Source of the DNA: Candidatus Poribacteria bacterium
Lineage (GTDB): Bacteria > Poribacteria > WGA-4E > WGA-3G
Length of the DNA stretch: 64,000 nt
Direction: 5' to 3'
Assembly: GCA_965198235.1 (NCBI GenBank)
Contig: OZ240248.1
Span: forward strand, 448,001-512,000
Below the pieces are notes generated by a model. That model was not told where the DNA came from. It did not search any database and saw only the letters and a program-made list of their open reading frames with translations. Each line of letters begins with the position of its first letter. Within the stretch, counting starts at the first letter, position 1. Position numbers and translations under genes: made by a program. Below, one piece after another: positions 1,411 to 48,796 of the stretch.

Positions 1411-1645
1411 CGGTTCGGTGAGGTAGGTTGAATGACCAACGATCCTCTCCGTAGATCCGCCCTCCATTTCATTACGGGCTACAACTTTGAACCTTAATCG
1501 ATTGACACAACTCTACGGTTCGGTGAGGTAGGTTGAATGACCAACGATCCTCTCCGTAGATCTGAAGAAACACCCAAGCAAAAACCCCTCCATTTCATTA
1601 CAGGCTACAACTTTGAACCTTAATCGATTGACACAACTCTACGGT
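1411..1645. repeat. Tandem duplication of a 105-bp REP/MITE-like unit; second copy (1516-1641) carries a 23-nt insert
   Basis: CGGTTCGGTGAGGTAGGTTG...CAACTCTA repeated at 1411 and 1516; related inverted copy at 28571-28647. Confidence 0.95.
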
Positions 1646-4466
1646 GTGAAGTCTTAGCCACCGTGGCATCTCTTATATTTCTTGCCGCTCTCTTATATTT
1701 CTTGCCGCTTCCACAAGGACAGGGTGCGTTTCTACCGACCTTAGGCGTGTTCCCCATTGCCTGTTGTGAAGCAAATTCGGCATCATCGCTGGTTGCGGCT
1801 GCGGTGCTGCCTTGAGGGTGCCTCGGCTGTGGTCTACGCTGTCTACCCGTTCGCCGACTGGGGACTCTGCGCGGTGCCTCGGTATTGACGCGAGATTTGA
1901 AGATGAACTCACTGACCTGCTCTTCAATCTGTTGATACATACTTTCAAAGACAGAGAGTGCTTCGTTTTTGAAAACGACGATCGGGTCTTTGCCGCCGTA
2001 TCCTGCGCCGAACCGAATACCTTCCTCAATATAGTCGATGTTATGGAGGTGTTCTTTCCAGTGGTCATCAATTCTATCCAAAAGGAGTAAGCGTTCGAGG
2101 ACGCGCATCATCTCTGGACCCATTTCGGCTTCGCGTTCTTCATAAGCGGCACGCAACGTCTCTAACGTCTGTTCTTGAACTTCCTCTGGACTTGCCTGTG
2201 CCAAGGGCGTTTTCCAAAGTGGCTCGATTGGGAATGTGGTCGTCAACCACTGCTGAAACCTGTCGGGGGTTTCAAGGGGACTTCCTGCTTTTTCTCCCAT
2301 ATTGTCCTCAATTGCATCTCTGACGACCCTCTCAATCATCCCCCAAATTGTCGTTTTCAGGGAGGCAGGAGTTTTAGTGTCCTTTTCAGCGAGTGCGGCG
2401 AGTCCACCATCTTCTGCTGTACCCTCGTGTTCTGGTAATTCGACGACATCTGTGGCGGAAGCGAGGACGGTGTCACGCAAGGTGTAGATGGTGTCGCGCT
2501 GTGTATCCATAACATCATCAAACTTGAGGAGATTTTTGCGGATTTCAAAGTACATCTGTTCAACACGCGTCTGTGCTTTCTCAATGGATTTGGTGACCCA
2601 CGGGTGTTCTAATGGGACATCATCATCCATTCCGACGCGTGTCATTAACCCTTGTAAACGTTCAGAACCGAATTTTCGCATCAATTCGTCTTCAAGGGAG
2701 AGGTAGAATCGAGATGAGCCTGGATCTCCTTGTCTACCGGAGCGTCCACGGAGTTGGTTATCAATACGTCGGGACTCGTGGCGTTCAGTGCCGATAATAT
2801 GGAGACCGCCGGCGGTTAATACCTTCTCTTTGTTTTTGTCGCAAATGGCTTGCGCTTCTGCAAGAGCTGCCTGAAATTCTTCGGACTCCGGGGACAGTGC
2901 CTCTGTCTTCGCTTTCTGTTTCCGCAGCGTTTCGATTGCCATACCTTCGGGGTTACCGCCAAGGAGAATGTCTACACCTCTACCTGCCATATTCGTTGCG
3001 ATTGTTACCGCACCGGGGACACCTGCTTGCGCGATGATATCGGCTTCGCGCGTGTGTTCCTTAGCGTTCAAAACCTGATGTCGGATTTTTCGGTGTTTGG
3101 TTCTGAGCATTTTGCTCAATTTCTCGGAATTTTCAATCGAAATAGTGCCGACAAGGACTGGACATCCCATTTCGGTCTGTTCGACGATATCTTGTAAGAC
3201 GGCGTTGTATTTTGCGTCCTCGGTACTGTAAATTTGGTCGGGATGGTCCATCCGGATCATAGGTTCGTTGGTAGGGATGACAGAGACCTCTAATCCGTAG
3301 ATGTGTGCGAATTCGTTCGCTTCAGTCGCGGCGGTACCCGTCATACCTGCAAGTTTGTCGTACATGCGGAAGTAATTTTGGTAGGTAATCTTAGCACCGG
3401 TTTCACTTTCCTCGACGACTTTAACACGTTCCTTTGCCTCGATTGCTTGATGGAGTCCTTCGCTGAGCCGTCTTCCGATCTGCTTTCGTCCTGTGAATTC
3501 GTCAACGAGAAGGACTTCGCCGTTTTCGACGAGATAATCGACATCGCTTTTATAGAGATGGTGCGCAGTGAGTGCTTGATTGACGTGATGCACCATAGCG
3601 ATGTTGGTATGTTCATAGAGGTTCCCCACGCCGAGACGACGTTCGACTTCCTCAACGCCTTCATCGGTAAGGGTTACACTGCCTCGCGATTTCCCCTCTT
3701 GGTCGATTTGGAAGTGTTCGCTTTCTCGGAGCTGTGCGACGACGCTGTTAATTTGCCTGTAGAGATCAGGGGGTTTACCGGAGGGTTCTGAGATGATGAG
3801 CGGCGTTCGGGATTCATCAATGAGGATGCTGTCAACTTCGTCAAGGATGGCGTAGACATGCCCGCGCTGTACTTTATCTTCAATTGAGAGTGATTTGTTG
3901 TCCCAGAGGTAATCGAATCCAAATTCGCTGTGAACGCCGTAAATGATGTCTGCCTTGTATCCGAGCCTTTTCTGTTCCTTCGGCATTAAGCTGAGCGTCA
4001 ATCCAACAGAGAGTCCGAGGAAGTTGTAAATCTTGCCCATCCATTCGGCATCACGGCGTGCGAGATAGTCATTGACGGTAGCGAGATGCACCCCTTTTCC
4101 AGTCAATGCGTTTAGATAGATGGCGAGGGTTGAGGTGAGCGTTTTGCCTTCACCTGTTCGCATCTCTGCGATGGTACCTTGGTGGAGCGCGATGCCTCCC
4201 ATAATTTGGACATCGTAGTGTCGCTGTTTTAAGGTTCGCACGGCGGCTTCACGGACGACAGCGAAAGCATCAGGTAAGAGATCATCAAGCGATGCACCGG
4301 CATCCAGCTGTCGACGAAATTCGGGGGTTTTGGATTGCAGTTGTGCGTCGGTGAGTTTTTTGTTTTCAGGTTCGCGCTGGTTGACAGCTTCGACGATGTC
4401 ACGAAACTTTTTGACATCGCGGTCCTCTTTACTACCGAAGACTTTAGTTATCATTTTTTGGAACAT
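1620..4466 (-). CDS. secA: Protein translocase subunit SecA (last residues frameshifted by a 20-bp duplication)
   Basis: MRTGEGKT, DEVDSILIDESRTPLIIS, TNMAGRGVDI, RGRSGRQGDPG and KVGRNAPCPCGSGKKYK motifs. Confidence 0.98.
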   Translation of the reverse strand: MFQKMITKVFGSKEDRDVKKFRDIVEAVNQREPENKKLTDAQLQSKTPEFRRQLDAGASLDDLLPDAFAVVREAAVRTLKQRHYDVQIMGGIALHQGTIAEMRTGEGKTLTSTLAIYLNALTGKGVHLATVNDYLARRDAEWMGKIYNFLGLSVGLTLSLMPKEQKRLGYKADIIYGVHSEFGFDYLWDNKSLSIEDKVQRGHVYAILDEVDSILIDESRTPLIISEPSGKPPDLYRQINSVVAQLRESEHFQIDQEGKSRGSVTLTDEGVEEVERRLGVGNLYEHTNIAMVHHVNQALTAHHLYKSDVDYLVENGEVLLVDEFTGRKQIGRRLSEGLHQAIEAKERVKVVEESETGAKITYQNYFRMYDKLAGMTGTAATEANEFAHIYGLEVSVIPTNEPMIRMDHPDQIYSTEDAKYNAVLQDIVEQTEMGCPVLVGTISIENSEKLSKMLRTKHRKIRHQVLNAKEHTREADIIAQAGVPGAVTIATNMAGRGVDILLGGNPEGMAIETLRKQKAKTEALSPESEEFQAALAEAQAICDKNKEKVLTAGGLHIIGTERHESRRIDNQLRGRSGRQGDPGSSRFYLSLEDELMRKFGSERLQGLMTRVGMDDDVPLEHPWVTKSIEKAQTRVEQMYFEIRKNLLKFDDVMDTQRDTIYTLRDTVLASATDVVELPEHEGTAEDGGLAALAEKDTKTPASLKTTIWGMIERVVRDAIEDNMGEKAGSPLETPDRFQQWLTTTFPIEPLWKTPLAQASPEEVQEQTLETLRAAYEEREAEMGPEMMRVLERLLLLDRIDDHWKEHLHNIDYIEEGIRFGAGYGGKDPIVVFKNEALSVFESMYQQIEEQVSEFIFKSRVNTEAPRRVPSRRTGRQRRPQPRHPQGSTAAATSDDAEFASQQAMGNTPKVGRNAPCPCGSGKKYKRAARNIRDATVAKTSHRRVVSID

Positions 4467-4543
4467 TTTTTTACCTATTTGCTCCTTGCCACCTTTCACG
4501 TTGTGAAAGGTGGTATATCTCTAAGTCATGATGGACTTGGTAT

Positions 4544-7023: not shown

Positions 7024-7183
7024 AGGACTTACGCAATTTTTCTATGAGCACCTCCGTATGACGCGCCGCTGGCGAGGTGTTTTTGCTGGGGGTTTTTGCT
7101 TGGGGTTTTTGCTTGGGTGTTTCTGTGGATTTCTGCGGATTTCCCCTAGAAACCTCGCCAGCAATGGATGTTGCGTAAGCCCT
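7024..7183. mobile_element. MITE-like element with AGGACTTACGCAA/TTGCGTAAGCCCT inverted ends, enclosing a REP palindrome that carries a stuttered insert
   Basis: 13-bp imperfect terminal inverted repeats; internal GCTGGCGAGGT...AAACCTCGCCAGC arms. Confidence 0.7.
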
Positions 7184-9541: not shown

Positions 9542-9613
9542 AGGTTCGACGGGGCGAGGTGTTTTTGCTTGGGTGTTTCCCTTAAGAAACCTCGCCAGTG
9601 AATTATAATCGGG

Positions 9614-15480: not shown

Positions 15481-16674
15481 ATGCGAATTATTCTTTACAC
15501 AGGTAAAGGGGGTGTCGGCAAAACAACGATTGCCGCTGCTACAGGTATCAAACTCGCAGAACTTGGTTACAAAACTATCGTGATTTCGCTTGACGTGGCG
15601 CATTCGCTCCGAGATGCATTTGATAACCACGAAAAACTCGTTCGCCAGAGTGAAGAGAAACAGATCCAAATCAGAGACAATCTCTGGATACAGGAAATTA
15701 ACGTTCAGGAAGCAATTGTTGAATACTGGAACGATGTGTACGGCTACATCCGTTCGTTGCTTAACCGTTCTGGACTTGACAGCCTCGTTGCTGAGGAGAT
15801 AGCGGTGTTTCCGGGGATGGAGGAGATTTGCGCGCTTCTGTATATCAACCAATATGTCCGGGAAAAAAGTTATGATGTGATTATTCTTGATTGTGCACCG
15901 ACTGGTGAGTCGCTCCGGTTTGTTAGTATACCTACGACGCTGGAGTGGTATATGAGCCATATTTTCAAATTGGAACGCAATCTTGCGAGAGTTGCGGGTC
16001 CGGTCATCGAACGGGTGAGTTCCGTCCCGATTCCACGAGATAATTACTTTCAGAATATTCAAGATTTATTCGATAAATTGGAAGGGATTGATGGTGTTCT
16101 GACGGATCCGAAAATCACGACGGTCCGCTTAGTGACGAATCCGGAAAAAATTGTTATTAAAGAGACGCAGCGGGCATTTATGTATTTTTGCCTTTACGGG
16201 TTGTGTATTGACGCTGTAATTATCAATCGTATCTTCCCCGATGGCGTTGATGCGGCATACTTTGAGACTTGGAAACGGTCCCAACAGCACTATATTGAGG
16301 AGGCAATGGACTATTTTTCGGACGTACCGATTTGGAAGGTGAACCTCTTCACGGAAGAAATTGTGGGAGAACGGGGCCTGCGTCAGTTGTCGGACACGCT
16401 CTATTCAGAGATTAACCCGGCAGATCAGTTCTCTAAAGAACGCCCGTATCAATTCCAAAAAATGGGAGATACCTATCAGTTGTCTATGCGTCTCCCGTTT
16501 CTGAGCAAAGAGGAAATTGGATTGACAAAACATGGCGATGAGTTAATTATCACAGTGGGTGGTTTCAAGCAACATGTCGCGTTGCCGCGGACGCTCTCGA
16601 ACAAAAAAACGACCGGCGCGAAACTCACCGGTGACCAACTCGTGATTAAGTTTGAAGGAGAGAGCCGGACCTGA
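15481..16674 (+). CDS. ArsA/GET3-family ATPase with C-terminal HSP20-like domain
   Basis: YTGKGGVGKTT, SLDVAHSL, PGMEE, DCAPTGE; C-terminal RLPFL..EEI.L...GDELIITVG. Confidence 0.92.
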   Translation: MRIILYTGKGGVGKTTIAAATGIKLAELGYKTIVISLDVAHSLRDAFDNHEKLVRQSEEKQIQIRDNLWIQEINVQEAIVEYWNDVYGYIRSLLNRSGLDSLVAEEIAVFPGMEEICALLYINQYVREKSYDVIILDCAPTGESLRFVSIPTTLEWYMSHIFKLERNLARVAGPVIERVSSVPIPRDNYFQNIQDLFDKLEGIDGVLTDPKITTVRLVTNPEKIVIKETQRAFMYFCLYGLCIDAVIINRIFPDGVDAAYFETWKRSQQHYIEEAMDYFSDVPIWKVNLFTEEIVGERGLRQLSDTLYSEINPADQFSKERPYQFQKMGDTYQLSMRLPFLSKEEIGLTKHGDELIITVGGFKQHVALPRTLSNKKTTGAKLTGDQLVIKFEGESRT

Positions 16675-20993: not shown

Positions 20994-23267
20994 ATGAAGA
21001 CTACACAATTCCGCTTCCATGTGGGTACGCTTTCCGTGCGTGTACATCTGCGCAGCACTATTCAGACCTATTTTCTCAGTTCGGTTCTCTTGTTAACTGC
21101 CATCCTCTTTCCGCCCAACGTTCATGCGCAAGATTACACCCAATTACAATTACCTGAAGGTGCGAAAGCTCGTATTGGGAAAGGGACTATAAACGATATA
21201 AGGTTTTCACCTGATGAAAGCCTTGTTGCCGTTGCTGGCTCTATCGGTGTTTGGCTCTATAATGCGCACACCGGTGCCGAGGTTGACCTGCTCACGGGGC
21301 ATACGCAGTCGGTTTTGAGCGTGGCGTTCTCGCCGGATAGCAAAACCCTCGCCAGTGGCAGTTGGGACACCACGATCCGTTTGTGGGATGTCCAAACTGG
21401 GCAACATAAAGTTTCCCTTACGCAGCATACGTATGGTATTTGGGCAGTGGCGTTCTCATCGGATGGAAAAACTCTTGCCAGTAGCAGCTATGGATCCGTT
21501 CGTCTGTGGGATATAGAAACCGGGCAGCACAAAGCACTCCTGAAGACACAGACGGGTAGAGCGAAAGCTCTCGCGTTCTCGCCCGATAGCAGAATCCTCG
21601 CGAATGGGGGGCAAGCTGTACCGCTTACAAGTAACAATTATCTGATTCAGTTGTGGGATCCCGATACTGCCCAACACCTTGCGACGCTTGAGGGACACAC
21701 GTCTGAGATTGAGGCGGTAGCGTTTTCATCGGATGGAAAAACACTCGTGAGTGCAAGCTGGGACCGCACAATTCGTTTGTGGGATGTAAGCACTAAAAGC
21801 CAGCTATCAACTTTCATAGGGAGTTCGGATTGGCTCACAGCGGTTGCATTTTCTCCCGATGGCGAAACGCTTGTCAGTGGCAGTCGACGCGGTGAAGTCC
21901 GTTTATGGGGCGCGAGCACTGGGCAACATATCAGAACACTGCGTGCACATACGCAAGAAGTTGCTGATATTGTGTTTTCTCTGGATGGCACAACCTTTAC
22001 CAGTGCAAGTCGTGACGGGACAATTCAGTTGTGGAATGCAAGTGGCGGTCCCCTCCAAGAAGCTACACTAAAAGGGCATACGGATGGGATTACTGCGATG
22101 GCACTCTCTCCGAACGGTCAGACTCTTGCAAGTGGAACTTACGGTCGCAGACTTGCCAATGGAAGTTGGGAAGCCCCGATTCGGTTGTGGAATACAGAGG
22201 CACAACGACCGGAAACAGTGTTAAAAGGGCATACAAAGCAGATTAATGCGTTAGCATTCTCCCCAAATGGAAAAATTTTTGCCAGCGCGAGTAACGACAA
22301 AACAATTCGGTTGTGGGACGTAAATACTGAGCAATCACCATTCGTTATTGATTTCCAACCACAGGCGATTCTTACAGAGCATACTGACGGAGTCCTCGCG
22401 TTGGCATTTTCTCCAGATGGCGGAACCCTCGCCAGCGGCGGTGGAACAGATCCGATTCGGTTATGGGATGCCCACACTGGTCAACAACAAGCAATCCTTG
22501 AAGGTGCCTCAGAAGCCATCTATTCTATGGCGTTTTCACCAGATGGCAGCACCCTTGCCAGTGGTAGTTGGGACGGCGTGATTCGGTTATGGAACGCAGA
22601 GACTGGGGAACTGAAGACCATGCTTAGAGAGATTTCTCGTTCAGGACATCGGGTTAGAACTGTCACTTTCTCACCAAATGGGGAAATCCTCGCCAGTTGT
22701 TCGGACTATTATGGGATTCAATTGTGGGATGCAAATACGGGTATCCGTCTTTTCACGTTCAGTGGTGGGCATACGGATGATGTCTATTCCCTCGCGTTCT
22801 CACCCGACGGTAAAACGCTTGCGAGTGGTGGTAATGACAGGACAATTATTTTCTGGGATGTCGCTACGGGTGGCTACCTGAGTGCCCTTGAAGGACATAC
22901 ACACGGCATCGCTGCCTTAGCGTTTACACCAGATGGTGGGACGCTTGCCAGCGGAAGTTGGGATGGCACGGTTCTTCTATGGGATATCCTATCTGCCGAA
23001 CGTGATCCGTCGTTAATGCCGGTTTCACAAACGCCGTGGGATGTCAACGGCGATGGAGTTGTCAGCGTCCAGGACTTGGCACTCGTTGCCTCTGGTTTCG
23101 GGCAGAATGCTCCCGATGTCAACGGCGATGGAGTCGTGAATATCTTGGATTTGACGCTGGTTGCCTCTCATTTGGATCCAAAGCCTGCTGATGTCAATAG
23201 TGATGGAGTCGTGAATATCTTGGATTTGACGAGCGTGGCGAGCTACCTCGACGAAGAGCAGGAGTAG
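20994..23267 (+). CDS. Secreted WD40-repeat protein (double propeller) with three dockerin-like repeats
   Basis: LPEGAKARIGKG leader, about 14 WD40 repeats, 3 x DVNxDGVV. Confidence 0.92.
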   Translation: MKTTQFRFHVGTLSVRVHLRSTIQTYFLSSVLLLTAILFPPNVHAQDYTQLQLPEGAKARIGKGTINDIRFSPDESLVAVAGSIGVWLYNAHTGAEVDLLTGHTQSVLSVAFSPDSKTLASGSWDTTIRLWDVQTGQHKVSLTQHTYGIWAVAFSSDGKTLASSSYGSVRLWDIETGQHKALLKTQTGRAKALAFSPDSRILANGGQAVPLTSNNYLIQLWDPDTAQHLATLEGHTSEIEAVAFSSDGKTLVSASWDRTIRLWDVSTKSQLSTFIGSSDWLTAVAFSPDGETLVSGSRRGEVRLWGASTGQHIRTLRAHTQEVADIVFSLDGTTFTSASRDGTIQLWNASGGPLQEATLKGHTDGITAMALSPNGQTLASGTYGRRLANGSWEAPIRLWNTEAQRPETVLKGHTKQINALAFSPNGKIFASASNDKTIRLWDVNTEQSPFVIDFQPQAILTEHTDGVLALAFSPDGGTLASGGGTDPIRLWDAHTGQQQAILEGASEAIYSMAFSPDGSTLASGSWDGVIRLWNAETGELKTMLREISRSGHRVRTVTFSPNGEILASCSDYYGIQLWDANTGIRLFTFSGGHTDDVYSLAFSPDGKTLASGGNDRTIIFWDVATGGYLSALEGHTHGIAALAFTPDGGTLASGSWDGTVLLWDILSAERDPSLMPVSQTPWDVNGDGVVSVQDLALVASGFGQNAPDVNGDGVVNILDLTLVASHLDPKPADVNSDGVVNILDLTSVASYLDEEQE

Positions 23268-37145: not shown

Positions 37146-37220
37146 AGAGATGTGTATTTCTGCGGATTTCCGCCACCTACAGAAGAACTGAATACCTTTA
37201 TTCAAGGAACGGAGGTTTGG

Positions 37221-46183: not shown

Positions 46184-46221
46184 GCGTGATCTATAATCGC
46201 CAGACCCTTTCAGGAATTATA

Positions 46222-47694
46222 ATGGATATATACAGTTCTCCAAATATTGTCTTTATCATGGCAGACGATATGGGATACGGTGATGTCGGTTGCTATAACC
46301 CCGATTCAAAGATTCCGACCCCGAATATGGATAAACTTGCGCAGGAGGGAATCCGCTTCACCGATGCGCACTCCCCCTCTGCAGTCTGTACGCCGACACG
46401 ATACGGGGTTTTAACGGGACGGTACTGCTGGCGAAGCCGCCTCAAACACGGCGTGCTTTACGGGTACGAGACACCCCTTATCGAACCTGACCGCTTAACA
46501 GTTCCTCAATTACTGAAAGATGCGGGTTACAATACTGCATGCGTGGGTAAGTGGCATTTGGGTCTCGGATTTTCGACGGTTCCCGGATACGATTTCGATT
46601 TCAATGCGCCGCTGCCGTGGCAGAACGCAGAACGTGAATTGGAAGAACATATCGACTTCACAGCACCATTAACCGGCGGTCCAGTAGATCTCGGCTTTGA
46701 CTATTTCTATGGAAACGCCGGTTGCCCGACCTGCCAACCCCCTTACGGCTTCATTGAGAACGATACGTTTGTCGAGATTCCGAGCGTCTATCATGAGGTG
46801 CCAGAGTTTACGAGCCGCCGTGGAATGATGGTCCCAGAATGGGAGCACAAAGATGCTGATCCGATTATCGCGCAGAAGGCGGTTGAATATATTGAGAGAC
46901 AATCCGATGCCGACACCCCTTTCTTCCTCTATCTGACTCCGTCCGCGCCACATGAACCTTGTACAGAAGCGGTCGTTCCAGATTTCGCACGTGGCAAAAG
47001 TAGTGCTGGTCCGCGCGGGGATTTGGTGTGGCTTGTCGATTGGATGGTAGGTGAGGTAATGGATGCGTTAGAACGTACCGGTAAAACCGATGAAACGCTT
47101 ATCTTCGTCACAAGTGATAACGGCGCATTGCCCGGCGACCGAATCCAAGGCGACAATAGTCCAATGCCGTATCACCTCTATGACCATAAGTCATGCAGCG
47201 ACTGGCGCGGCTACAAGGCGCATATCTGGGAAGGTGGACATCGTGAACCTTTGATTGCGCGCTGGCCCGGAGTTATCGCACCAAACACGCAAACCGACGC
47301 ATTAACTTGTCTCACGGACCTGATGGCGACGTGTGCCGCTATTGTTGGGACAGAAGTCCCCGACGATGCGGGACAGGACAGTTGTAATGTCTTGCCTGCG
47401 CTGTTAGATGAAAAGACAGAGAACCCCTTGCGGGAGGCTATCGTACATCACTCCAGTACCGGTGTTTTTTCTATCCGTCACGGCGCGTGGAAGTTGATTC
47501 TGGGAACGCAAGGTTCAGGTGGGTGGCCTCCACCGCGCGATGGAGGTCCGAAATCGGATGTCCCAGGGCAATTGTATCAGATTTACGAGGATCCGGGTGA
47601 AGCAAACAATGTATGGGAAATATATCCAGAGATTGTGGAACGCCTGACGGGGTTGCTGGAAAAATTTCAGCGAGATGGACACAGTCGGATGTGA
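46222..47694 (+). CDS. Arylsulfatase
   Basis: PNIVFIMADDMGYGD, CTPTRYGVLTG, GKWHLG, SDNG. Confidence 0.94.
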   Translation: MDIYSSPNIVFIMADDMGYGDVGCYNPDSKIPTPNMDKLAQEGIRFTDAHSPSAVCTPTRYGVLTGRYCWRSRLKHGVLYGYETPLIEPDRLTVPQLLKDAGYNTACVGKWHLGLGFSTVPGYDFDFNAPLPWQNAERELEEHIDFTAPLTGGPVDLGFDYFYGNAGCPTCQPPYGFIENDTFVEIPSVYHEVPEFTSRRGMMVPEWEHKDADPIIAQKAVEYIERQSDADTPFFLYLTPSAPHEPCTEAVVPDFARGKSSAGPRGDLVWLVDWMVGEVMDALERTGKTDETLIFVTSDNGALPGDRIQGDNSPMPYHLYDHKSCSDWRGYKAHIWEGGHREPLIARWPGVIAPNTQTDALTCLTDLMATCAAIVGTEVPDDAGQDSCNVLPALLDEKTENPLREAIVHHSSTGVFSIRHGAWKLILGTQGSGGWPPPRDGGPKSDVPGQLYQIYEDPGEANNVWEIYPEIVERLTGLLEKFQRDGHSRM

Positions 47695-47711
47695 GTATTC
47701 TACACAGATGT

Positions 47712-47811
47712 TGAAGAAATCCACAGAAATACCCAAGCAATACGCAGAAATCCGCAGAAATCCGCAGAAACACCCAAGCAAAAACCCCTATCAAAAACCC
47801 CAAGCAAAAAC
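47712..47811. repeat. 100-bp stuttered array of AGAAATCCGC / CCCAAGCAAAAAC units
   Basis: Same motif as inserts at 1563-1585, 7079-7146 and 9561-9582. Confidence 0.92.
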
Positions 47812-47959
47812 CCCCGCTGGGGCTTAGCGGAATTATACTTTCAAATCAACGAAAAGTCAAACTAAAGTCCAGAGAACGCAACCAAACCCGTATCTATTGG
47901 ACAAGGTCCCCGTGCCTTAGTCCAATAAACTTTATGAGATAGTTTGAGGAACAAAGACT

Positions 47960-48796
47960 ATGGAAACCACTACGACACTTGATTCACTCTTTCGATTATC
48001 TGGTCCGTCGCAGGCGGATATCGATTCTTTTCATAACGATGGCTACATCGCGTATCCAGATGTGTTCACGGACGACGGCAGAGAAGGATTGATTGAGGAA
48101 ATCACACAGCGTTTTGAACCGACACGTCAGTTCATTGAGGCATTGAATAATGGTAACCAACAAGAACGCTCTTATTTTATTCGTCCATGGAACGATCGCG
48201 GTGCCTACAGCGATCAGCTTATCGACGACCCTTTCATTACGGCACTGATACGCGCAACTATCGGTGACGCATACCACTTCTGCCACTCTGCGCTCAACAT
48301 CGCACCCCGTGGTGTCGGTCCACTTGGATACCACCAGGACCATCACCATTGGAAGCATGAGAACCCTGTTAACCTCGTGGAACGCGATAACTACTATATA
48401 CAGATTCTGTACTACCCGAACGGTTTTACACGCGGCGATCGGAATCTCAAAGTTATATCGGGCAGCCATAAGGTTGCTCCGACAAAAGAAGCGACACCCG
48501 AACGGATGCTTGCAGGCGATTTCGACGGAGAAGCTGGACGTAAACTGGAAGAGAAACGGCTTGAATTGCCACCGGGCAGCATGGTCTACATTAATGCCCG
48601 CATCTTCCACGGAGTAGAAACGAAGCCTGTGGACTCACCGCAACTCTATCGTATCTTCGCTATTGACATTTTCAAGGAAGCGGGGCCGCCGCACCGCTAC
48701 ACGCAAGAAATCCCGGCGGAATGGATCGAACGCGCTTCCCCAGAACGTAAGAAGCTGTTTATTCGCGACGCTTATACAGAAGGGTGTTGGAAGTGA
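47960..48796 (+). CDS. PhyH family dioxygenase
   Basis: YHQDH, L.VI.GSH, PGSMV.IN..IFHG. Confidence 0.85.
   Translation: METTTTLDSLFRLSGPSQADIDSFHNDGYIAYPDVFTDDGREGLIEEITQRFEPTRQFIEALNNGNQQERSYFIRPWNDRGAYSDQLIDDPFITALIRATIGDAYHFCHSALNIAPRGVGPLGYHQDHHHWKHENPVNLVERDNYYIQILYYPNGFTRGDRNLKVISGSHKVAPTKEATPERMLAGDFDGEAGRKLEEKRLELPPGSMVYINARIFHGVETKPVDSPQLYRIFAIDIFKEAGPPHRYTQEIPAEWIERASPERKKLFIRDAYTEGCWK

Follow-up and report, generated by a model that had tools for sequence, protein, structure and literature searches.

Between a sulfatase-family gene (46186..47694, + strand; Pfam PF00884, 1.2e-49) and a PhyH-family gene (47960..48796, + strand; Pfam PF05721) of a Candidatus Poribacteria bacterium (contig OZ240248.1) lies an intergenic repeat array of 100 nt, at positions 47712-47811 of the 64,000-nt window analyzed here (the whole stretch of DNA under study; coordinates are window positions throughout). 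The stop codon of the sulfatase-family gene (47692-47694) falls 17 nt before the array, and the PhyH-family gene is downstream of it. The array, whose motif is read on the − strand, is bounded by CCCCGCTGGGG and TCTACACAGATGT and is set within a host element of its own: at one end is the hairpin CCCCGCTGGGG (47812..47822), an element like the repetitive extragenic palindromes (REPs) and from a family that has empty members, and at the other the host arm tTCTACACAGATGT (47698..47711, + strand reading) precedes the array. The interval 47698..47711 supplies the other half of the host element, TTCTACACAGATGT, which on the − strand is ACATCTGTGTAGAA and contains GTAG; the host flanks on that strand are CCCCAGCGGGG and ACATCTGTGTAGAA. 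We use the name E for the dispersed element of which the array is one copy; it consists of a 19-base core (GTTTTTGCTTGGGTGTTTC) and a short tail, about 23 bases together. In the basic 23-nt form, a 13-mer (unit A, GTTTTTGCTTGGG) is followed by TG and then by TTTC with a short tail, mostly TTCA or CCCA. Our preferred reading, to which we would give about an even chance, is that Poribacteria have a very small, non-coding mobile repeat specific to them and that the array is one of its compound copies, enlarged by secondary insertion.

On the − strand, E starts straight after the GGGG of the host hairpin, and the compound array runs through three 13-mers, TG, three 10-mers, an 11-nt 13-mer-like piece and a further 10-mer to its end, TTTCTTCA. 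The 13-mers are GTTTTTGCTTGGG (47811-47799), GTTTTTGATAGGG (47798-47786) and GTTTTTGCTTGGG again (47785-47773, followed by the TG), and the first three 10-mers are TTTCTGCGGA (47770-47761), TTTCTGCGGA (47760-47751) and TTTCTGCGTA (47750-47741). The 13-mer-like piece that comes next, TTGCTTGGGTA (47740-47730), is called the restart below; it is followed by the 10-mer TTTCTGTGGA (47729-47720) and the terminal TTTCTTCA (47719-47712). Tandem Repeats Finder called both sub-arrays, one with a period of 10 (5.5 copies) and one with a period of 13 (3.8 copies). With up to two mismatches allowed, the 13-mer had 11 matches in the window against a mean of 2.17 in shuffled sequence (0 of 100 shuffles reached 11), and the 12-mer junction TTGGGTGTTTCT, with up to one mismatch, had 6 against 0.45 (0 of 100 reached 6); the 10-mer by itself stood out less, with 12 matches against 5.13 and 2 shuffles in 100 as high as that. 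The initial annotation had described a stuttered array of 100 bp with a jump back to an earlier part of the motif, and the layout, the repeat calls and the shuffles agree that such an array is real and lies inside the interval that annotation had outlined. Among 177 parsed motif sites it is the longest (102 nt by alignment; the next are 74, 65 and 64 nt), and 21 of the 177 are at least 40 nt long. The host hairpin together with E's run of T scores as terminator-like on the − strand, and the RNA fold of that strand has z = −2.75.

To locate further copies, 596 Gb were scanned with the exact 19-mer core, which is common to all four window loci, and it was found in at least 116 places. From the matches listed, 114 loci (1.48 Mb; L080 to L114 with 300-nt flanks) were taken; the window's own genome is not among them, and the nearest to it are L065, with genes 87-90% identical across window 38.6-51.9 kb, and L025. 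By hand count, the matches listed fall in 42 assemblies: 39 of Candidatus or uncultured Poribacteria, two labeled "uncultured bacterium", which carry the same kinds of host repeats as Poribacteria, and one Pyrinomonadales metagenome-assembled genome. This last match (L074, 10001-10019), the sole one outside Poribacteria among those listed, lies in sense in a long open frame (..MVVFAWVFPEN..); our own arithmetic gives a chance expectation of about 4 for a 19-mer in 596 Gb, so a single such match is about what chance gives and probably arose by chance. Where secondary copies of E occurred in unselected flanks, 55 of about 64 were imperfect. The hosts of E comprise at least 10 unrelated families of short, G+C-rich, intergenic hairpin repeats, and because they are hairpins, many of them carrying GTAG, we regard them as REP-like. 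Neither the position nor the orientation of E relative to genes is fixed. A replication-strand bias was rejected, as local GC skew on the E-forward strand was positive at 38 sites and negative at 40, and so was a genome-specific tail type, since TTCA and CCCA both occur in OX638352 and in CBDFHD. No match to the array was found in phage and plasmid collections, and no Rfam family in 47400-48100, where one sub-threshold match to a small nucleolar RNA is due to chance. Some of the hosts (L034 flanks of 2336-2354, L046, L105, L111 and L026) are hairpins with arms of 7-nt tandem repeats (GGCTGTC..., CAGTTTC..., ACTGATA...), which we take to resemble the heptamer repeats of cyanobacteria.

Comparisons of filled and empty sites show that E is a genuine insertion, which comes and goes as one unit with single-base precision. 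Within the window, two adjacent copies of an ~80-nt repeat, 105 nt apart, differ by one base and by the 23-nt basic form GTTTTTGCTTGGGTGTTTCTTCA (1563..1585, − strand) in one copy versus CG (1458-1459) in its twin. An empty paralogue of the same host repeat was present for 32 of 124 exact-core sites and, when anchors were placed further out, for 23 of 155 sites. In these 23 filled/empty pairs the net length change was +21 nt in 12, +22 in 3, +10 in 1, +12 in 1 and +32 to +68 nt in six multi-unit pairs. Few orthologous E loci were seen across the genomes compared. In one orthologous pair, with both flanking genes conserved at ~88%, L091 is filled and L093 empty at the same base: L091 reads GGTGAGGTGAGT-GTTTTTGCTTGGGTGTTTCCCCAA-GGATTTTC and L093 reads GGTGAGGTGGGT-CT-GGATTTTC, so that GTTTTTGCTTGGGTGTTTCCCCAA stands against CT at the site. 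Relative to L091, L093 (reverse complement, alignment columns ~299-410) has gained an extra repeat of ~110 nt that itself carries E, and thus host repeats and E both turn over between close species. E was also found inserted in a reverse-complement E (L007, L077 and L059), and it interrupts the hairpin stems of host repeats.

The host of the window array follows the same pattern. A search for CCCCAGCGGGG...ACATCTGTGTAGAA with mismatches allowed returned seven rows, namely three empty members, one with a 23-nt E, the window copy and two that are irrelevant. The empty members read CCCCAGCGGGG-cg-ACAGGTGTATAGAA (L038), TCCCAGCGGGG-ca-ACATCTATGTAGAA (L095) and CCCGAGCGGGG-tg-ATATGTGTGTAGAA (L024), and another member in L095 has a plain 23-nt E where the spacer would be. 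The initial annotation had supposed that the two flanks rejoin as one REP-like element with the loss of a 2-nt spacer, as at 1563, and had suggested looking for empty elements elsewhere; the three Poribacteria members, with cg, ca and tg as spacer, and the CG of the window twin of 1563 bear this out. No empty copy of this host element was found in the window itself, just as that annotation had said. Nor does the locus behave as a conserved master copy, the possibility that the annotation had set against its own proposal: the orthologous gap in L065 (genes ~88% identical) holds a DUF433 gene on the − strand and no E, the gap in L058 is only ~110 nt and also has no E, and the sequence of both is unrelated to the 47698 region.

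Insertion sites share a short target. E begins GTTTTTGC, and among 93 distinct left flanks the preceding triplet is R-G-(G/T), with A or G at position −3 in 87 of 93, G at −2 in 81 of 93, and T (52 of 93) or G (35 of 93) at −1. These bases are also present in the empties and thus belong to the host. The 3′ end is less fixed: after GTTTC came TTCA 15 times, CCCA 8, TTCT 6, TGCG 5, CCCT 4 and CTCA 3, with many singletons. A 3′ junction set by TTTC microhomology with the host was considered and rejected; it fits the window loci at 7079 and 9561 but fails at L024, where CAC intervenes. E has no terminal inverted repeat, as its ends, GTTTTTGC and TTTCTTCA, are not inverted versions of one another, and no target duplication was found at E; host bases are lost instead (about 2, as judged from paralogues). 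A miniature inverted-repeat transposable element (MITE) or DNA transposon was rejected on these grounds, and an array of clustered regularly interspaced short palindromic repeats was rejected because the units abut head to tail with no spacers. The center of E, TTGGG^TG^TTTC, itself fits the target rule, so further copies would be expected to land inside resident ones.

Genes are occasional hosts as well. Six of 176 Poribacteria sites lie in long open frames, all six antisense to the gene. The L019 protein contains LGKHPSK, 7 extra residues that are absent from its 73%-identical orthologue in L045, and the L032 gene with E encodes a GH2 glycosidase in which the insert is in frame. Among the 120 closest GH2 homologues, 108 are without the insert and 12 have it, 10 with 4-5 extra residues (GKHPSKN) and two with 13 (GKSAENTQAKTPSKKN); from its residues, the 13-residue insert reads like a multi-unit array. 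In a FastTree phylogeny of 50 GH2 proteins (insert masked, midpoint root, branch supports not considered), the carriers of the insert did not form one clade. Some of these homologues (P0001-P0120) have a second in-frame insert just after the E site, GSPPAYGRGNLAPTGKG or a shorter GSPPV..TGKG, which most of them do not have and which may be a REP-like repeat read through as protein.

Numbers of 13-mers (A) and TTTC-units (B) were counted at each site. The raw counts (A,B) were 1,1 at 132 sites, 2,2 at 11, 3,3 at 4, 1,2 at 5, 1,3 at 2, 2,1 at 4, 2,3 at 2, and 1,0 at 8, with one site each at 3,1, at 3,4 and at 4,5, the last being the window array. After six counts had been corrected by hand and eye for a 2×2 table, both units were present at least twice in 18 sites, one only in 3 and 5, and neither in 145 (Fisher P = 4e-17). 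Because the two counts are coupled, independent stuttering or slippage at two points does not fit. The composition of the arrays is also ordered: the outer 13-mer and outer tail are those of the single-E type of that host family, and the inner units are other subtypes. Examples are the gtaggagcgagt host (arrays L021 and L101 versus singles L016, L028, L035 and L094), the GTTTATTTGC host (L036, L070) and the reverse-complement-E host (L007, L077). Eight assemblies have single forms in the gtaggagcgagt host, and one has arrays. Variants of the 13-mer are mixed in 16 of 21 multi-13-mer arrays (read by eye from the list), and a simple variable-number tandem repeat produced by slippage was rejected on this mixing and on the coupling of counts. 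Since the short form has no TGCGGA, the 10-mers cannot grow by slippage alone.

The restart can be read in the same terms. Together, TTGCTTGGGTA and TTTCTGTGGA make up a second, diverged module of 13-mer plus 10-mer, which departs from the first where another subfamily characteristically does (GGGTA, TGTGGA). After TTTCTGCG, the window array continues TA-TTGCTTGGG-TA-TTTCTGTGGA, and L085, from another genome and in another host repeat, has the same junction, TTTCTGCG-TA-TTGATAGGG-TA-TTTCTGCGGA; what the two have in common is TTTCTGCG-TATTG...GGGTA-TTTCTG. A third A-B-A-B junction, in L056, also restarts at TTGCTTGGG. Given its recurrence in L085, the junction is either recurrent and site preferred or an inherited composite, and not a private accident of the window locus. 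It may reflect another E module landing in the 10-mer block, a higher-order duplication, or a preferred template jump at the T-run. The view in the initial annotation that the back-jump calls for dissociation and re-priming at this locus finds no support in that form: the same junction is in L085, the second copy has the differences typical of another subfamily, the counts are coupled, and the searches described below found no reverse transcriptase, template or master. Re-priming may be one of several explanations.

The coupling of counts, the resident-type outer units, the mixed variants, the lack of TGCGGA in the short form, the target-like center and the distribution of the gtaggagcgagt forms favor secondary insertion. 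E would land beside purine-G-(G/T) in place of about 2 host bases, mostly in REP-like hairpin repeats and occasionally in genes. With a center that is its own target, a resident E could receive copies of the form A-TG-TTTCTGCGGA, and nested insertions of this kind would build arrays A..A-TG-B..B-tail. The window array would go back to a resident E that took the 2-nt spacer position of a CCCCAGCGGGG-NN-ACATCTGTGTAGAA element; secondary insertions would then have enlarged this copy, a diverged module within the 10-mer block giving the restart. As to how copies are made, the G-rich left flank matches the ends of E's own units, the 3′ tails and the target loss are variable, and there are no transposon-like ends; these features lead us to conjecture primed synthesis over a cut-and-paste transposase, with copying perhaps primed on a G-rich 3′ end at a break.

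Several observations weigh against secondary insertion by a mobile E. The inner units always end in TG(C/T)GGA and never in a TTCA/CCCA tail, and a complete tail followed by TTTC occurs in 0 of 177 arrays, which nesting of copies with fixed ends fails to explain. The window array, with an A-B-A-B stretch among its 4 A-like and 5 B-like units, is not a clean nest. Age could also account for the coupling of counts, if copies are long when young and decay to the short form, and many apparently independent sites may be one event multiplied with the host repeat. The number of host bases replaced by E (0 to 15, mostly 2-3) is a soft figure because the empties are paralogues, and over most GH2 homologues the insert is 4-5 residues, not 7. 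There is also the matter of an enzyme. No linked enzyme was found among the recurrent families of 1041 open reading frames (ORFs) within 3 kb of sites, a comparison that left out single, non-recurrent ORFs, and no conserved master copy or template among the 114 loci. The recurrent neighbor families, considered as enzyme candidates, were rejected as ordinary paralogues (GFO/IDH/MocA, Laminin_G_3, WD40, sulfatase, ADH) whose positions are not conserved. A scan of the 48 window ORFs, 8 of them without a Pfam match, likewise found no reverse transcriptase, transposase or integrase.

Four other accounts of the array were weighed. In one, which we consider unlikely, a polymerase with a fixed template of ~35 nt (reverse-transcriptase- or telomerase-like) adds the motif at a REP break in one event, stuttering at GGG and TTTCT and re-priming. 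The initial annotation had proposed modeling the array as template-switch paths on a 33-nt consensus, and the array can be written on one 35-nt template as (0-12)(0-12)(0-26)(17-26)(17-24)(4-34), with jumps at short template repeats. The bases R-G-(G/T) of the left flank are, moreover, what precedes GTTT within arrays and would offer microhomology for priming, the 3′ tails vary, and a small target loss is a feature of target-primed retroelements, R2 for example. The stutter itself fares less well against the coupled, non-independent counts and the restart junction shared with L085. The order of variants also recurs between loci, with GATAGGG then GCTTGGG in window 47786, L025 and L002, and GCTGGGG then GCTTGGG in window 7079, L007 and L077; outer units match resident single forms; and neither a reverse transcriptase (in the window ORFs or the recurrent families adjacent to sites) nor a conserved master among the 114 loci came to light. 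It is distinctly unlikely, in our judgment, that the long arrays are instead the primary young form, that the 23-nt form is the residue of deletions between direct repeats, and that the window copy is the least decayed. Such deletions (GGG...GGG, TTTC...TTTC) are easy and always end in the same irreducible 23-nt form, and differences in age alone would couple both counts; intermediates do exist (A-TG-B-tail at 3 sites, A-A-TG-tail at 2-3), as do short and long forms at one GH2 site in close relatives. Two independent deletion steps predict more intermediates than were seen, however (~8 versus 18 arrays), and neither the excess of singles over arrays in the gtaggagcgagt host (eight assemblies to one) nor the different subtypes of outer and inner 13-mers sits well with decay.

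That a single E was inserted and then changed only by slippage, unequal exchange and gene conversion, with no further insertions, seems very unlikely to us. The motif is made up of three similar units of 10-13 nt that would easily misalign, identical 13-mers are neighbors in 5 of 21 multi-unit arrays, and the window array has adjacent identical 10-mers. Yet slippage predicts identical neighbors and uncoupled counts, the reverse of what the mixed, coupled arrays display; the 23-nt copy has no TGCGGA to expand; and the restart copy differs from its neighbor at 2 positions. We see next to no chance that the motif is immobile, a selected functional site (a protein-binding site or the T-run of a terminator) that is maintained or re-formed within repeats. 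Among the matches listed, ~42 assemblies have the exact 19-mer, and both the terminator-like score after G-rich hairpins and the − strand fold would suit a function. Against this, E is in frame in at least 4 genes, always antisense, and interrupts hairpin stems; its position and orientation relative to genes vary, most secondary copies in unselected flanks are imperfect, and it is present or absent at orthologous sites. A broader conjecture, in our estimation a long shot, is that Poribacteria carry a dedicated template-bearing polymerase. Acting at breaks, mainly those in REP hairpins, it would extend G-rich 3′ ends with a fixed sequence of 23-35 nt, and the break would then be resealed with the loss of about 2 nt. 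If true, bacteria would have an equivalent of telomerase-style healing, or of target-primed reverse transcription with an element that has no coding capacity, and successive rounds at the center of E would be what the arrays preserve.

Besides the 47712 array, the window contains three full motif loci and one truncated piece. The basic form at 1563 has been described above. A second array (7079..7146, + strand), of 3 13-mers, TG, 2 10-mers and TTTCCCC, lies inside the hairpin GGCGAGGT...AAACCTCGCC, a family of which empty hairpins are known, and a single E comprising the 19-mer core and CC (9561..9581, + strand) lies in a hairpin of the same kind; the position in L025 orthologous to the latter holds a different, empty hairpin. 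The truncated piece, TTTCTGCGGATTTC (37156..37169, + strand), adjoins ...CCACCTACAGAAG, a host end seen elsewhere with a full E. The gene content around these copies is that of an ordinary chromosome (SecA, PurA, L13, HslVU-like genes, sulfatases and WD40 proteins). A repeat of ~100-110 nt, GTAGCCCGTAATGAAATGGAGGG-CG-GATCTACGG...CCGAACCGCAAGGAAAATTAAAAA, is found at window 1440-1627 and at many loci (L029, L033, L079 and L099 among them) and ends in a Shine-Dalgarno-like AAGGA a few bases before the ATG starts of unrelated genes; from its sequence it looks like a dispersed repeat family bearing a 5′ untranslated region and ribosome-binding site. Near the 3′ end of the SecA-like ORF (1620-4499, − strand) there is a perfect 20-nt tandem duplication (TCTCTTATATTTCTTGCCGC twice, 1669-1709), and at the end of a WD40-repeat ORF (20994-23267) there are 75-nt tandem repeats (23040-23231, 2.6 copies), which presumably resemble dockerin-type repeats. 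Next to the 47712 array is a strong sigma-70-like promoter (47832..47860, − strand; TTGACT-17-TATAAT, 11 of 12), which is directed from the PhyH side toward the hairpin and array. In L065 the same promoter sequence precedes an 86-aa DUF433 gene (15625-15885, − strand; Pfam 7e-25) that is absent from the window, and so the window may have lost this small gene while retaining its promoter.

Of the known systems, E comes closest to the small dispersed repeats (SDRs; SDR1-8) that Nostocaceae cyanobacteria carry, reportedly described by Elhai et al. in Genome Research in 2008 (18:1484). SDR5 is given as 21 nt long and of unknown function (PMC13756078), it inserts precisely between bases 3 and 4 of HIP1 (PMC4390886), and SDRs are reported in tandem in various copy numbers (PMC2884548). 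PMC5861425 states that SDR-like repeats were not found in HIP1-enriched cyanobacterial genomes outside Nostocaceae, and PMC3116915 proposes REP doublets forming hairpins (REPINs) as building blocks of complex repeats and as a route to understanding SDRs. Like SDRs, E has a unit of ~21-27 nt (basic insert 21-24 nt), is dispersed, mobile, present or absent at given sites, and tied to a precise short target, with no known enzyme. It differs, by the descriptions of SDRs, in phylum, probably in sequence, in its R-G-(G/T) target with a replaced dinucleotide mostly in REP-like hairpins, and in its coupled A..A-B..B arrays. In the literature searched we found no occurrence of the motif strings, no other bacterial element called very small and mobile beyond SDRs, and no discussion of REPs in Poribacteria, the two terms co-occurring only in an unrelated review.

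The hosts of E are like REPs (short, G+C-rich GTAG hairpins of many families between genes), whereas E itself is unlike REPs and REPINs in having no palindrome or inverted repeat of its own, in sitting inside hairpins and breaking them, and in moving between unrelated REP families. No REP-associated tyrosine transposase (RAYT; Y1/HUH) was found among the 48 window ORFs, and none was searched for genome-wide. The BIMEs (bacterial interspersed mosaic elements) of Escherichia coli combine palindromic units with other short motifs. Rickettsia palindromic elements, which are MITEs that insert in frame into genes and are ~100-150 bp long and palindromic, resemble E as non-coding repeats tolerated in protein genes as extra residues, but E is 23 nt long without inverted repeats or target duplication. 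BOX elements of Streptococcus pneumoniae are likewise modular dispersed repeats with a variable count of an internal unit (boxA-boxB(n)-boxC), with modules of 45-60 nt that form one structured unit; they are not known to enter other repeats with single-base precision. To R2 target-primed reverse transcription and to telomerase, both of them known for such behavior, E bears a resemblance only, in G-rich priming, a variable far junction, a small target deletion and realignment of units; it is unlike them in its coupled counts, which repeat addition does not predict, and in that the window and the recurrent site neighbors yielded neither a reverse transcriptase nor a template RNA.

Mobile DNA of ~20 nt is, to our knowledge, much smaller than what any known transposition machinery is understood to act on, and the only described case that we could trace, the cyanobacterial SDRs of 2008, is as far as we know still without a mechanism. 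With E, the same kind of very small mobile repeat is seen in a second phylum, on exceptionally favorable material: dozens of species, several complete chromosomes, filled/empty pairs at single-base resolution and a clear target rule; the coupled arrays put a further constraint on any mechanism. Insertions in genes add peptides such as GKHPSKN, and short in-frame inserts of E origin are to be expected by annotators of Poribacteria proteins. For these sponge symbionts, the finding shows that their REP-like repeats are themselves broken and remodeled by a second layer of selfish DNA.

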